Of a stretch of DNA of 64,000 nucleotides, positions 40,584 to 64,000 are shown piece after piece. The stretch lies in assembly GCA_044368015.1 (NCBI GenBank), contig JBIPLF010000005.1, positions 2,985 through 66,984 on the forward strand, given 5' to 3'. A model generated the notes under the pieces. The model searched no databases, was not told the DNA's origin, and was given only the letters and a program-made list of their open reading frames with translations. Both the position numbers and the translations under genes were made by a program. Every line of letters begins with the position of its first letter. Position 1 is the first letter of the stretch. The stretch is from Rickettsiales bacterium. Its GTDB lineage: Bacteria > Pseudomonadota > Alphaproteobacteria > Rickettsiales > RI-342.

Positions 40584-40615
40584 CTCAGCACTCAGCACTC
40601 AGCACTCAGCACTCA
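40584..40615 (+). repeat. Heptanucleotide tandem repeat (CTCAGCA) x4 plus a partial copy
   Basis: Read directly from the sequence. It ends 9 nt before the pilin-like ATG at 40625. Confidence 0.95.
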
Positions 40616-52422: not shown

Positions 52423-52475
52423 GGATATCCCCTCCGCTGTTGCCATTCCTCGCATCATCCATTATCCAGTCGTCC

Positions 52476-53447
52476 ATGACCCCACTCTCCTTCATCCACA
52501 CGTTGGCCGACCTCGCGGGCGAGGTACTCCGCCCCTATTACCGCTCGCCGCTGGTGATTGATTCCAAGGGCGACCGCTCGCCGGTTACCGAGGCCGACCG
52601 CGCCGTGGAACGTGCCTTGCGGGAAGCCATCCGCAAGGCCTATCCGGAGCATGGGATTGTGGGGGAGGAATACGGCGCGGAAAACCCGGACGCCGAGTTC
52701 TGCTGGTATCTGGACCCCATCGACGGCACGCTGTCCTTCATGCATGGCAAGCCGCTCTTCACCACGCTGATTGCGCTCTGCCATCGCGGCATTCCGGTGC
52801 TGGGATGCATCGACCAGCCGATTCTTGGGGATCGCTGGGTGGGGGGAAAGGACGCACCGACGGTGCATCAGGGGTCAGGGTTCAGGATTCAGGATTCAGG
52901 ATACCCCCTCCCTATCCCTCCCCCGCAAGCGGGAGAGGGGACCGGAGGAGAGGCCTCTCCTACTGACCAAACGTTGATCGTAAAGCGCGATGGTGCATCC
53001 GGTCCCCTCTCCCGCTTGCGTGGGAGGGATAGGGAGGGGGTGTTGTTTGCAAGCCACCAGCCACTAATCACTAGCCACTGTAAAACCCGCCCCTACACCT
53101 CCCTCGCCGAGGCCAGCTTCTCCACCACCTCGCCCTATCTCTTTAACCCGCAGGAGCGGGCGGCGTTTGAGCGCATCCGCGAGCAGTGCCGCTACACGCT
53201 GTTTGGGGGCGATGCCTACGCCTACGGGATGCTCGCTTCCGGGCAGATCGATTTAGTAGTGGAGGCAGGCTTACAGGATCACGATTTTCTGCCGCTCGTC
53301 GCGGTGATTGAAGGCGCGGGCGGCATCATGACCGACTGGGAGGGCAACCCGCTCACCACCCAATCCGACGGACGGGTGATCGCCGCGGGGGATAGAAGAG
53401 TGCATGCACAGGTGGTGGGGATGCTATCGGGAGGAGGACCCATGTAA
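52476..53447 (+). CDS. Inositol monophosphatase family protein, histidinol-phosphatase (HisN)-like, carrying a 68-codon in-frame repeat insertion
   Basis: Contains SPVTEADRAVE, WYLDPIDGT, FGGDAYAYGMLASGQIDLVVE and LPLVAVIEGAGGIMTDW. The conserved sequence is interrupted at 52875-53078. Confidence 0.85.
   Translation: MTPLSFIHTLADLAGEVLRPYYRSPLVIDSKGDRSPVTEADRAVERALREAIRKAYPEHGIVGEEYGAENPDAEFCWYLDPIDGTLSFMHGKPLFTTLIALCHRGIPVLGCIDQPILGDRWVGGKDAPTVHQGSGFRIQDSGYPLPIPPPQAGEGTGGEASPTDQTLIVKRDGASGPLSRLRGRDREGVLFASHQPLITSHCKTRPYTSLAEASFSTTSPYLFNPQERAAFERIREQCRYTLFGGDAYAYGMLASGQIDLVVEAGLQDHDFLPLVAVIEGAGGIMTDWEGNPLTTQSDGRVIAAGDRRVHAQVVGMLSGGGPM
52875..53078. repeat. Composite repeat inside the CDS: GGATTCA heptamers + family P palindrome + CCACT/AGCCAC module
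   Basis: 204 nt (68 codons). TCAGGGTTCAGGATTCAGGATTCAGGATA, then CCCCCTCCCTATCCCTCCCCCGCAAGCGGGAGAGGGGACCGG...CCGGTCCCCTCTCCCGCTTGCGTGGGAGGGATAGGGAGGGGG. Confidence 0.85.
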
Positions 53448-59933: not shown

Positions 59934-59942
59934 GAGTTGTCA

Positions 59943-59993
59943 GTTGTGAGTTGCCAGTTATCAGAACTCCCTTGCCGACTGGCAACTCACAAC
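59943..59993. repeat. Inverted repeat built from the AACTGGC/GCCAGTT module
   Basis: GTTGTGAGTTGCCAGT-19 nt-ACTGGCAACTCACAAC gives a 16-bp perfect stem. A further ACTGGCAACT copy follows. Confidence 0.9.
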
Positions 59994-60980: not shown

Positions 60981-61358
60981 ATGAGTCCCTGGCTGTTCCT
61001 CTTCGCCTCAATTGCGCTCGAAATCACCGCCACCACGCTGCTGCGGATGTCCGAGGGTTTCGCGCATATGCAGTATGCGGTGATTTCGGTCTGCCTGTAT
61101 ATTGTGTGCTTCTTTTGTTTTTCGCAAAGCCTGAAGGTGATTCCGCTCAGCGTCGCCATTTCCATCTGGTCGGGGGTGGGAGTGTTGTGCATTTCCCTCA
61201 TCAGTGCGCGGTTGTTTGCGGAGGGCTTCCCGCCACTTAAAATTGCGCTGATTGGTATGGTTGTCACCGGCTGCGTGGGGCTGATGGCGATCACGAAGAC
61301 GCAGGATTCAGGTGCCGGGATTCAGGATTCAGAACAGAAGCAAGGACCCGTCTCGTGA
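60981..61358 (+). CDS. SMR family small multidrug resistance transporter
   Basis: MSPWLFLFASIALEITATTLLRMSEGF (with the conserved membrane Glu) and four TM segments. The C-terminal tail TQDSGAGIQDSEQ is encoded by GGATTCA heptamers. Confidence 0.88.
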   Translation: MSPWLFLFASIALEITATTLLRMSEGFAHMQYAVISVCLYIVCFFCFSQSLKVIPLSVAISIWSGVGVLCISLISARLFAEGFPPLKIALIGMVVTGCVGLMAITKTQDSGAGIQDSEQKQGPVS

Positions 61359-62935
61359 CCCCCCTCTGGACCGCCGCGGAAGTGCGCGAAGCCACGCATG
61401 GCACCGGAGCGGGCGAGTGGCAGGCCAGTGGCGTTTCCATTGATACCCGCAGCCTGCAACCGGGCGACCTGTTCATTGCACTCACCGGATCGCAAAGCGA
61501 CGGGCACCGCTATCTGGCACAGGCAGCCGAGAAGGGCGCCGTGGCGGCGATCGTCTCGCAGGAGGTGGCATCCCCCCTCCCCTCCATCCGCGTCCCGGAT
61601 ACCGAAAAGGCGCTGTGGGCACTTGGAGTGGCGGCACGCGCACGCACGCAGGCGACCATCCTCGCCGTAACGGGGAGTGTGGGCAAAACCACCGCCAAGG
61701 AAATGCTGCGCGCCGCTTTCGCCGCCTATGGCACCACCTACGCTACCGGCGGCAATTTCAACAACCATCTGGGTGCGCCGCTCAGCCTCGCCCGGATGCC
61801 CCGCGATACCGAGTACGGTATTTTTGAACTGGGCATGAACCATGCGGGCGAACTTGCCGCCCTCACCCGGCTGGTCACGCCGCATGTGGCGATGATCACC
61901 ACCGTAGCCGCCGCGCATCTGGAGCATTTTGCCTCCGAGGCCGCGATTGCCGACGCCAAGGCCGAGATTTTTGAGGGGCTTTCCAGAAAGCAGGTTTCAG
62001 GATTCAGGATTCAGGCACAGGGCATCGCCCTGATCCCCAGCGACAATCCCCACACCCCCCGGCTGCGGGAAGCGGCAACGCACCATGCCACCCGCATTGC
62101 CGCCTTCGGGCGTAGCGGCGATACCGATATGCAGGTGGTGGGAACGGTGCCGGAGGGGGAAAGACTTCGCGTCTCCCTTCATTTAAAGCACACATCCCCC
62201 CCCCTCCCTATCCCTCCCCCGCAAGCGGGAGAGGGAACCGGATGCAGCATCACGCCTCACGACCAGCATCTGTTTACAGGAGAGGCCTTTCCTCCGGTCC
62301 CCTCTCCCGCGGAGCGGGGGAGGTTGGAGGCAGTGCCTCCAAGGGAGGAGGTAACACACAACTGGCAACTGACAACTGGCAACTATTCCCTCTCCCTGCC
62401 CTCTCTCGCCGAGCATTGGGCAGACCTCGCCGCGCTGACCCTGCTGGCGGTGACGTCCCTGCATCTGCCGCCCGCGCCCGCGATGGCCGCACTGGAAACC
62501 ATGCCGGTTCCCGAAGGGCGCGGCGGTTGGCGAACCGCGACCATCAACGGGGCGTCGATCCGGGTGATGGATGATAGCTACAATGCCAACCCCGCTTCGA
62601 TGGCGGCAGCACTCTGCACCTTTGCCCGTACGCCGGTCACAGGGCGACGCATTGCACTGCTGGGGGATATGCTGGAGCTGGGACCGGGCGCGCCCCGCTT
62701 CCACCGCGAGTTGGCGGCAGTGATTGCCCCCCTCCCCCTTGATCTGGTCGGTAGCTCCGGACCGTTGATGCGCCATCTGCATGACGCGTTGCCGGAAGGG
62801 CTGCGCGGTCCCCATGCCGAGACGCCGGAAACCTTATGGGAACGGCTTCAACCGCAACTCAGGGCAGGCGACGCGCTCCTCATCAAAGGTTCGCATGGCA
62901 GCGGGATGTATCGGTTGGTGAAGGGGTTATCCTGA
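61355..62935 (+). CDS. murF: UDP-N-acetylmuramoyl-tripeptide--D-alanyl-D-alanine ligase, carrying in-frame repeat insertions
   Basis: Contains LQPGDLFIAL, TGSVGKTTAKEM, NNHLGAPLSL and DSYNANP. Interrupted at 61994-62020 and 62198-62386. The GTG start overlaps the SMR stop. Confidence 0.92.
   Translation: MTPLWTAAEVREATHGTGAGEWQASGVSIDTRSLQPGDLFIALTGSQSDGHRYLAQAAEKGAVAAIVSQEVASPLPSIRVPDTEKALWALGVAARARTQATILAVTGSVGKTTAKEMLRAAFAAYGTTYATGGNFNNHLGAPLSLARMPRDTEYGIFELGMNHAGELAALTRLVTPHVAMITTVAAAHLEHFASEAAIADAKAEIFEGLSRKQVSGFRIQAQGIALIPSDNPHTPRLREAATHHATRIAAFGRSGDTDMQVVGTVPEGERLRVSLHLKHTSPPLPIPPPQAGEGTGCSITPHDQHLFTGEAFPPVPSPAERGRLEAVPPREEVTHNWQLTTGNYSLSLPSLAEHWADLAALTLLAVTSLHLPPAPAMAALETMPVPEGRGGWRTATINGASIRVMDDSYNANPASMAAALCTFARTPVTGRRIALLGDMLELGPGAPRFHRELAAVIAPLPLDLVGSSGPLMRHLHDALPEGLRGPHAETPETLWERLQPQLRAGDALLIKGSHGSGMYRLVKGLS
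62198..62386. repeat. Family P palindromic element + ACTGGCAACT module inside murF
   Basis: 189 nt (63 codons). The arms match the copy at 52875-53078, and the central ~52 nt is the reverse complement of that copy. Confidence 0.85.
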
Positions 62936-62947
62936 AGCGTGTCCCCC

Positions 62948-63715
62948 CTACTCCACGCTCTTTGCCTTGCAGGTGGCGAAGTCAGGGCAGCGGGCGGCGA
63001 GTTCGGCGGTGGCGGAACCAATCAGCGCGGCGCCGCTGGCTTTGACGGGTAGCATACCGGCATTATCCTCCACCCAGATGGTGATGTCCGGCTCCTGATT
63101 TTGCATCTTTTTTATTTCCTTATCCGTGAAACCGGCAATCGGGTCACGTCGGAAACGGAAGCCCAGCAGGTCGTCCTTGGCACCCACATAGCGTAAGCGG
63201 AGATCGGCCAGCCGCCGCCCATCATACATGGGAGTGCTGTAAGAGACCGGCGCGGTTCCGGCCTTCCATTCGCGTAATTTCTGCCACACCAGTGGAATCA
63301 TGGTGAGGGTGTCGTACGCCCCGTTGCGTTGGCCGTCTGGCACTTTTTTGCGCTTCCACACCGGGTCCGGCGGAGAGTAGGAATCGCTGATAATCCGTCG
63401 CTGACGGTCCCAGAAGAGGGTGATGCGTTTTTCGCCGCTCTTGCGGGTGCGGGACCAGGTTTCAAACCGCTGGGGGATGTAGTCTTTCCCCTCGCGAATG
63501 CCCTCTACCGTGGTGAGGCTTTTGTATTTGCTGATGCTGCGGGCCAGCCCCAGCGCCACCATATCCACCTTGATGCGATAGCTGGTTGCGTCTTCCTGAA
63601 CTTCCGCCACCAGATTGCCGATATGCATCGGCCCCCAATAGACGCGGTACCACGCGGCTTGTGTCGCGGCGTGGAGGGGGGGGGCGAGGAGGAGGAACAG
63701 GAGGAGCGCCGTCAT
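62948..63715 (-). CDS. DUF3108 domain protein (secreted)
   Basis: Start trimmed to ATG 63715 (MTALLLFLLLAPPLHA, a signal peptide). YRVYWGPMHIGNLV...YDTLTMIPLV... matches the recalled DUF3108 pattern. The upstream part of the ORF is repeat-encoded. Confidence 0.8.
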   Translation of the reverse strand: MTALLLFLLLAPPLHAATQAAWYRVYWGPMHIGNLVAEVQEDATSYRIKVDMVALGLARSISKYKSLTTVEGIREGKDYIPQRFETWSRTRKSGEKRITLFWDRQRRIISDSYSPPDPVWKRKKVPDGQRNGAYDTLTMIPLVWQKLREWKAGTAPVSYSTPMYDGRRLADLRLRYVGAKDDLLGFRFRRDPIAGFTDKEIKKMQNQEPDITIWVEDNAGMLPVKASGAALIGSATAELAARCPDFATCKAKSVE

Positions 63716-63976
63716 CCTGAGGGGGCTTGCCCCCGAAGGATCGCTCCGTTTACGAAACAGAGGGTGTTTCCTCGTTTTTCCCGCACGCAGCCATTCGTCA
63801 CTCTTTCCGGAGTGAGGGGGTGTCATGCTGAACGGAGTGAAGCATCGCTCCACTGGCGTTAACCTATCCGTACGGAGAGATCCTTCGGGGATAAACCCCT
63901 CAGGATGACGCAACCTATCCACGCTACGCCAAGCGGGGAGATACTTCCCCTTCGCTACGCTCAGCGTCAGGATGAC
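63711..63976. repeat. Cluster of nested family B palindromic elements
   Basis: GTCATCCTGAGGGGGC..., GTCATGCTGAACGGAGTGAAGCATCGC..., CCTCAGGATGACGC... and GCGTCAGGATGAC. Confidence 0.8.
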
Positions 63977-64000
63977 GCCCCTCATCATGTGCCTACCCCT

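Follow-up and report, generated by a model that had tools for sequence, protein, structure and literature searches.

How does an essential cell wall enzyme come to carry 72 extra residues derived from repeat DNA? We addressed this question for murF of a Rickettsiales bacterium (GTDB lineage RI-342; assembly GCA_044368015.1), within a stretch of 64,000 nucleotides that is referred to here as the window (contig JBIPLF010000005.1, positions 2,985 to 66,984 of the forward strand). The gene lies on the plus strand (61355..62935), begins with GTG, and encodes a UDP-MurNAc-tripeptide--D-Ala-D-Ala ligase of 526 amino acids, as assigned from the open reading frame (ORF) list and Pfam. Its coding sequence contains two in-frame inserts, one made of heptamers (insert 1) and one made of a palindromic element with a further heptamer array (insert 2). 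We consider it likely that both are tolerated, selfish insertions of dispersed repeat DNA in permissive surface loops, comparable in kind to the Rickettsia palindromic elements (RPEs).

Under this reading, dispersed repeat DNA of a non-coding type would have landed in, or spread into, murF. Insert 2 belongs to a family of approximately 137-nt BoxC-type doublets, specifically its subfamily with a 19-nt palindrome, with a CAACTGG array attached, and insert 1 is a GGATTCA array of the kind that usually accompanies intragenic copies. Selection would have kept only in-frame, stop-free insertions in permissive loops, and the inserts would persist through the preserved reading frame and through loops that tolerate extra residues. 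In-frame palindromes themselves are already known; what is new here is a BoxC-type doublet with heptamer arrays in frame in an essential gene.

The murF gene and its two inserts

We found that the murF product has only the Pfam domains Mur_ligase, Mur_ligase_M, and Mur_ligase_C, that it matches solved MurF structures in the PDB (to E = 5.5e-58), and that its AlphaFold2 model is a confident MurF fold, with a mean predicted local distance difference test score (pLDDT) of 87.8 and a predicted template modelling score (pTM) of 0.86. Foldseek aligned the model to solved MurF structures with TM scores of 0.85-0.87, normalised to the target. In an alignment of 50 sequences this MurF keeps 55 of 55 invariant columns, including the P-loop GSVGKT and the DDSYNANP block. 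The genome (1.92 Mb in 87 contigs, completeness score 100%) contains five Mur_ligase_M matches, including murE and a single-copy murF; of the others, we take two to be murC and murD and one to be folC. A second, uninterrupted murF, which the preliminary description had raised as a sign that this copy might be decaying, was sought genome-wide and none was found. A second murF or a pseudogene was ruled out by the one murF among the five matches and by the intact invariant residues, and murF is the genome's working copy.

These results bear on two other possibilities, namely that this murF is decaying as a pseudogene and that the insert arose as an artefact in the assembly of a metagenome bin rich in repeats. 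In their favour, the assembly has 87 contigs, several of which end in this repeat. Against both versions, the ORF is intact with all invariant residues present, and this is the only murF of a 100%-complete bin in which the other Mur ligases are present. Furthermore, unique murF sequence is in frame on either side of the insert, and two sources, JGI and NCBI, have the identical protein of 526 aa in their records, on contigs of up to 202 kb. We regard decay or artefact as extremely improbable. Apart from the identical protein, a collection of 5.8 billion proteins contained no MurF above 56% identity.

The inserts were located by their translations. Codons 214-222 (61994-62020) read VSGFRIQAQ and codons 282-344 (62198-62386) lie between ...RVSLHLKHTS and SLSLPSLAEHW, both as previously quoted, and both segments are in frame. 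The existence of two inserts was borne out, while their sizes required revision from 9 and 63 codons to +10 and +62 amino acids by length difference against 49 homologues, the boundaries being ambiguous. The stretch at site 1 spans 12 residues in 47 of the 49 database homologues and 22 in this MurF; at site 2 it spans 19 residues in all 49 and 81 here, hence the 62 additional amino acids. Alignment columns that correspond to insert 1 (aa 211-220) are filled only in this MurF, and the greater length of longer homologues (482-489 aa) consists of N- or C-terminal extensions, with none at site 2. Both inserts are also missing from MurF of 18 of 19 relatives (4 of the same family and 15 of the same order); the exception, a genome labelled G021, is considered below. 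The ortholog alignment proposed in the preliminary description, which would have been refuted by presence of the segments in distant relatives lacking the repeat, found them absent from 49 of 49 homologues.

Insert 1 occupies 61993..62020 on the plus strand as the heptamers GGTTTCA GGATTCA GGATTCA GGCACAG, read (Q)VSGFRIQAQ, and Tandem Repeats Finder reports its array at 61991-62015 with period 7. In the AlphaFold2 model it falls in the loop joining helix 195-208 to strand 224-228 (pLDDT approximately 63). Residues 287-338 of insert 2 have pLDDT below 50 and fall in the turn joining strands 270-277 and 342-348. Structural mapping, one of the checks suggested earlier, therefore places both MurF inserts in predicted loops between secondary-structure elements, with insert 2 predicted to be disordered.

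Insert 2 is composed of four parts. Its proximal arm, CCCCCTCCCTATCCCTCCCCCGCAAGCGGGAGAGGGAACCGGA (62200..62242, plus strand), matches the arm pattern exactly and carries a BoxC/TMECO-type motif on the opposite strand; the murF arm CCCTCTCCCGCTTGCGGGGGAGGGATAGGGAGGGGG fits the TMECO consensus with one substitution. A centre of approximately 50 nt follows (62243..62292, minus strand). The distal arm (62293..62351, plus strand) belongs to the subfamily with the 19-nt palindrome TTGGAGGCAGTGCCTCCAA (62324-62342) and is supported by the inverted repeats I1, I3, and I5. A CAACTGG/CAACTGA array (62358..62384, plus strand; Tandem Repeats Finder, period 7, 3.7 copies), read NWQLTTGN, closes the insert, whose peptide includes PPLPIPPPQAGEGTG... 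The 19-nt palindrome in the distal arm is a subfamily trait common to approximately 7 copies and does not represent a separate event.

The same family interrupts a gene for an inositol monophosphatase (IMPase)/HisN-like protein (52440-53447). There a plus-strand composite (52868..53079) consists of a GGATTCA array, a 137-nt element in forward orientation (52904-53040), and an AGCCACT array, and the Pfam domain Inositol_P covers residues 19-325 of the product, across the insert. The earlier proposal that the two genes hold one element in opposite orientations was confirmed: the murF element aligns with the IMPase copy over its full length in reverse orientation only (86% over 124 nt), while in forward orientation the match is limited to the 43-nt arm. 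The centre of the murF copy is truly inverted relative to that of the IMPase/HisN-like copy.

We asked whether the inserts could be removed before the mature protein is formed, by RNA excision, protein splicing, or ribosomal bypass. A very stable hairpin is processable in principle. In insert 2, however, there is no intein and no other Pfam domain, and Rfam gave no family, only far sub-threshold hairpin matches; an intein or intron was ruled out, with Pfam finding only Mur ligase domains and Rfam no intron match. Intein motifs and domains and Rfam intron or ribozyme families are likewise lacking as support for removal in general, and insert boundaries vary between hosts. Moreover, all genic copies are stop-free and in the frame of the host, with Pfam domains continuing on both sides, none of which excision would need. 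Removal is therefore very improbable. Searched with phmmer among 1.84 billion representative proteins, the 63-aa insert matched only three, all of them from this genome.

The palindromic element and its copies inside genes

Genome-wide BLAST identified 43 copies of the element that are 100 nt or longer (modal length 137 nt) and approximately 30 fragments; seven are at contig ends. With copies oriented by their centre, the left arm is CCCCCTCCCTATCCCTCCCCCGC, a variable loop of 4-6 nt, and GCGGGAGAGGGGACCGGA; the centre of approximately 52 nt starts with the palindrome GGAGAGGCCTCTCC; and the right arm is the reverse complement of the left. Each 43-nt arm is a local hairpin. Relative to the centre, the 19-nt palindrome never changes arms, which indicates that the element has a real polarity, and the variant arm that carries it also occurs in C14, C20:4912, C29:15320, C79, C86:1825, and C31. 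A second subfamily has CCCTCACCCCTCCCTCTCCC arms. The closest sibling of the murF copy, 95% identical by BLAST, is within a glycosyltransferase gene. In the window, a 40-nt arm pattern has three matches (52904; 53001 on the minus strand; 62200) compared to none in shuffled sequences. Of the features of a MITE (terminal inverted repeats, a target-site duplication, and a parent IS with the same ends), inverted repeats are present in the element, and no consistent target-site duplication was found in the flanks of the 43 copies.

Matches to the TMECO consensus, CCCTCNCCC-N3-6-GGGNGAGGG-N3-GGGNGAGGG with one stem mismatch allowed (PMC4666352), numbered 31 exact, 65 at one substitution or fewer, and 81 at two or fewer across the genome; the reversed-sequence control gave 0, 1, and 1, respectively. 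Judged by its sequence, the element is a palindromic doublet of BoxC-type motifs in a REPIN-like arrangement, with arms that would be of the BoxC/PIT/TMECO intrastrand triplex motif type, the triplex itself being putative. The arms share with that family the fit to its consensus with one substitution, variable loops, and conserved stems with one stem mismatch. Palindromic pairs of TMECO motifs also exist in E. coli, and in E. coli K-12 TMECO (BoxC/PIT) is always intergenic and without a linked mobility gene (PMC4666352). In contrast, the doublets described here have a conserved, polar centre of approximately 52 nt, approximately 12 of the 43 lie in frame inside genes, and the motif occurs on the flanks of DUF559 genes.

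Approximately 12 of the 43 copies are deep within conserved genes and in frame. Gene calls for this census came from greedy longest-ORF tiling, backed by Pfam for the 12 hosts, and several apparent N-terminal copies, probably in 5' untranslated regions, were left out of the genic count. The hosts are MurF, the IMPase, RibD, DapD, QueA, BioD (two copies), a GT4 glycosyltransferase, an Mrp/Nuo antiporter subunit, a homoserine-kinase-like APH, an AddA-like helicase, and the junction of a fused ORF of MurE and a haloacid dehalogenase (HAD) phosphatase. Several Pfam domains are split by the element and resume in the same frame: RibD_C, THDPS_N_2 (DapD), Queuosine_synth (QueA), AAA_26 (BioD, twice), and GT1. 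Neither the orientation nor the frame in which a genic copy is read is constant, so that the resulting peptides are unrelated, and within the element the reading frame changes because differences in loop length shift it.

Two of these hosts have further features. In bioD (C31:1766-2902) two copies in opposite orientations encode aa 140-183 and 277-312, each after a GGATTCA-type array. The murE gene at C3:26204-28441 continues as one 745-aa ORF into the HAD phosphatase domain, and the link consists of a GGATTCA remnant, a 137-nt element, and an inverted GGATTCA array, with nothing else. We saw no ATG, GTG, or TTG from the element to the FDWDNT motif of the HAD domain, and MurE open frames of relatives are 468-542 aa long. 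The repeat may have created the murE-HAD ORF by fusing two genes.

The preliminary description implied that freedom from stops in both orientations is a property for which the element was built or selected. Our data do not support this. Of six frames, 2.45 are open per intragenic copy and 2.11 per other copy, which equals expectation from shuffled copies (2.18) and random genomic 137-mers (2.19). Since these counts are at chance level, the open frame in each genic copy reflects survivorship and not design. Five of the six frames of an arm are open because the arms are polypyrimidine/polypurine tracts. The folding energy per nucleotide is similar in genic and other copies (-0.79 and -0.78, respectively), and among five genic copies read in the same frame the ratio of nonsynonymous to synonymous change (pN/pS) is 0.64-0.68. 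Overall, the palindrome is conserved, and the encoded peptide only weakly so.

RPEs are in-frame palindromic repeats in intact housekeeping genes of Rickettsia (Ogata et al. 2000; PMC10969869, PMC3733652). They have in common with the present element that they are dispersed palindromes of approximately 100-150 bp, located in and between genes, many of them in frame in intact, unrelated housekeeping genes at sites compatible with the fold. Unlike RPEs, which are AT-rich, the element has GC-rich polypurine/polypyrimidine arms, and the sequences appear unrelated. Its host is not Rickettsia and has a genome of 57% GC, and the element itself, a BoxC-type doublet accompanied by heptamer arrays, occurs in both orientations and in several reading frames, without a single conserved peptide. 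Given these differences in composition and host, the likeness that we propose is one of kind and not of family. Intragenic REP dimers that encode 20-30 aa have also been documented (PMC3116915, PMC3337134, PMC3733652). If the proposed origin holds, in-frame colonisation of housekeeping genes by palindromes is not peculiar to Rickettsia and extends to the widespread BoxC/PIT/TMECO family, which has been described as strictly intergenic.

Are the two MurF sites unusually accepting? Among the 31 genomes searched, the full element is confined to this genome. A 38-nt arm is present in 6 relatives and reaches 97% identity in G021, a member of a different family within the order and the only relative searched with GGATTCA arrays in numbers. 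MurF of G021 (locus L010, G021:C12:3422-7147) has a different, 68-nt palindrome (GTCATTGCGAGG...CTCGCGATGAC, read SLRGAISDVAIQPGSPRFARDDE) at the beta-hairpin of insert 2 and approximately 11 extra residues at site 1. These independent hits at the same two loops indicate that the sites are permissive. That this MurF beta-hairpin has received an unrelated palindrome in a second family suggests that permissive sites of Mur ligases are definable, and such sites could serve tagging or protein engineering. At the same locus, MurE of G021 (position approximately 450) has an in-frame GGATTCA array, GIQGTGFRIQDSG. Read from translation, MurE, MurD, RsmH, a BioF-like enzyme, RsmE, XseA, and KdpA appear to be the hosts of in-frame repeats in G021 besides MurF.

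Heptamer arrays and the question of co-option

Tandem repeats with a period of 7 outnumber those of any other period in the genome (198 arrays). GGATTCA (45 arrays, with 24 variants in addition) and CAACTGG/CAACTGA (23 and 14 arrays in the AACTGGC and AACTGAC classes, respectively) are the principal classes. In the window the GGATTCA dimer occurs 7 times compared to 0.1 expected. One GGATTCA-type array (61302..61332, plus strand; Tandem Repeats Finder, period 7) forms the C-terminal tail of the upstream small multidrug resistance (SMR) gene (60981-61358, plus strand), in which the Pfam domain Multi_Drug_Res ends at residue 93 of 125. The stop of this gene overlaps the murF start (GTGA). Tail array and overlap agree with the preliminary description, by Tandem Repeats Finder and the ORF list.

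Heptamer tandem repeats of this general sort, the short tandemly repeated repetitive (STRR) sequences of cyanobacteria, were reportedly described by Mazel et al. in 1990. Cyanobacterial STRR heptamers are used for typing (PMC5088731). In both systems a small set of fixed 7-nt units forms short arrays that recur at many places in a single genome. The arrays described here differ in their units (GGATTCA and CAACTGG) and in phylum; many of them are in frame within genes and adjoin palindromic elements.

We found that a GGATTCA-type array, read GSGFRIQDS, is directly upstream, in the direction of the gene, of 11 of 12 genic copies in either orientation of the element, compared to 4 of 31 other copies with such an array beside them (Fisher p = 2.5e-6). 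In murF this array is detached and lies approximately 200 nt upstream of the element, as insert 1. The view of insert 1 as a separate heptamer block is thus correct in that it is a distinct array, and incorrect in so far as it implies an unrelated one. A second array often follows the element (AGCCACT, CTTACCA, CTCATCC, ATCATCG, CAACTGG, or inverted GGATTCA). Element and arrays together resemble a mosaic composite, and co-mobility of that composite is the simplest reading of why arrays and genic copies go together.

This association also lends itself to a different explanation, namely co-option of the inserts. The peptide module common to them, GSGFRIQDS - PLPIPPPQAGEGTG... - RGRDREGV, would provide MurF and a dozen other enzymes with a proline-rich disordered tag, for instance for binding of a common partner, localisation, or turnover, or the mRNA hairpin would regulate expression. 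The module is present in approximately 10 housekeeping enzymes, GGATTCA arrays are far more frequent beside intragenic copies, and the pN/pS is below 1. However, the centre peptide is highly variable among copies, the use of either orientation and different frames yields unrelated peptides, and the host genes are functionally unrelated. Furthermore, the insert region is predicted to be disordered, and close relatives within the family (G001-G004) manage without the inserts. Our data make co-option quite unlikely.

We return to tolerated insertion of selfish repeat DNA, under which we infer that both inserts are translated as passengers of neutral or slightly deleterious effect. Several observations weigh against it. 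The pairing of GGATTCA arrays with genic copies exceeds what passive tolerance alone explains. A hairpin of approximately -76 to -114 kcal/mol in an essential mRNA might be costly, and the pN/pS, being below 1, is compatible with mild constraint at the peptide level. That the inserts are translated is inferred only, and public data contain no empty-site allele or close relative by which recency or polymorphism could be demonstrated.

Other arrays in this genome and in G021 were noted. Two arrays in the window have 100% matches: TGCCAGT x6.1 at 7804-7846 and CTCAGCA x4.6 at 40584-40615. A CAACTGR-type array (AGTTGTC as reported) at 59935-59964 is directly upstream of a class IV aminotransferase gene. 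The longest ORF of that gene (305 aa) reads the array as TGNSQLITGNS; given that the JGI contig gene call is 284 aa, the start is probably downstream of the array. Antisense GGATTCA arrays at the MurE-HAD junction and in G021 (L111, L112) are readable as LNPESRI only because the unit in which TGA would fall in frame is the variant CGAATCC. The presence of CGAATCC in this unit could be a footprint of selection or merely a common variant.

DUF559 genes beside the arm motif

Which enzyme might move the repeat? In REPIN/RAYT systems, as here, an inverted doublet of hairpin repeats with a spacer is accompanied by low-copy enzyme genes that are flanked by the repeat. The present system differs from REPIN/RAYT in having neither a RAYT (PF01797) nor a GTAG/CGTC end tag, and the flanked gene encodes a Vsr-like DUF559 nuclease. 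PF01797 had no match in the genome while control genomes did match, DDE_Tnp_1 and TnpB-type transposases were likewise not found in the genome, and a single rve integrase match is on C87.

All three genes in the genome for DUF559, a nuclease with the Vsr fold, are small and have the arm motif in their flanks at a distance of no more than 60 nt. At C29:5272-5583 (subfamily 1) a full doublet abuts the stop, at C82:44263-44571 (subfamily 1) inverted motifs are on both sides, and the gene at C68:31-348 has subfamily 2 motifs. Flanking by the motif extends to 10 of 16 DUF559 loci in relatives and to 15 of 28 in a sample across the phylum Pseudomonadota; in the latter, 26 motifs are in 8.4 kb near the DUF559 gene compared to 15 in 74 kb of farther flank. 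The usual layout is a plus-strand motif 45-70 nt upstream of the gene and a minus-strand motif 5-30 nt downstream (loci L113-L158). DUF559 proteins are mutually 41-60% identical. The association of DUF559 with BoxC motifs looks like a long-standing pairing in the style of RAYT and REPIN and not like a recent transfer; we found no published statement of it in the literature. We also considered whether a DUF559 cassette had moved horizontally between this genome (G000) and G021 in recent times; this is unsupported, since the proteins are 46-51% identical. The 38-nt arm itself is 97% identical in the two genomes. Judging from gene content and motif position, the DUF559 nuclease is the sole candidate mobilising enzyme of the repeat. 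To our knowledge, no activity of a Vsr-like DUF559 nuclease on the repeat has been described.

From this pairing a more specific account can be built, in which DUF559 nucleases would run a system and the murF insert would be its non-autonomous, REPIN-like derivative. The attached heptamers would be a working part that serves as frame adapters and flexible linkers and so allows the composite to establish itself in frame within genes. A heptamer length of 7 is 1 mod 3, and heptamer arrays are stop-free in the sense direction. We consider this account possible but doubtful as a whole, and heptamers as frame adapters or linkers are an idea and not a result. If true, there would be an enzyme dedicated to BoxC-type repeats, and these repeats would have a way of entering coding sequence. 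Together with arm-flanked DUF559 genes, the tie between arrays and genic copies provides testable handles on movement of the repeat, and the same two features may show how new disordered protein segments originate.

In four relatives (G016, G002, G020, and G011; loci L114, L115, L117, and L121), the DUF559 domain is in open frames of 1239-1467 aa without an adjacent BoxC motif. These long frames could be helicase fusions or in-frame cassettes.

Near the end of the window, at 63700-63990, a different palindromic family (…CATCCTGAGGGGGCTTGCCCCCGAAGGATC…, …TCAGGATGACG…) fills the region upstream of a DUF3108 gene. That repeat is read through in the 346-aa DUF3108 ORF, whose N-terminus is probably over-extended.

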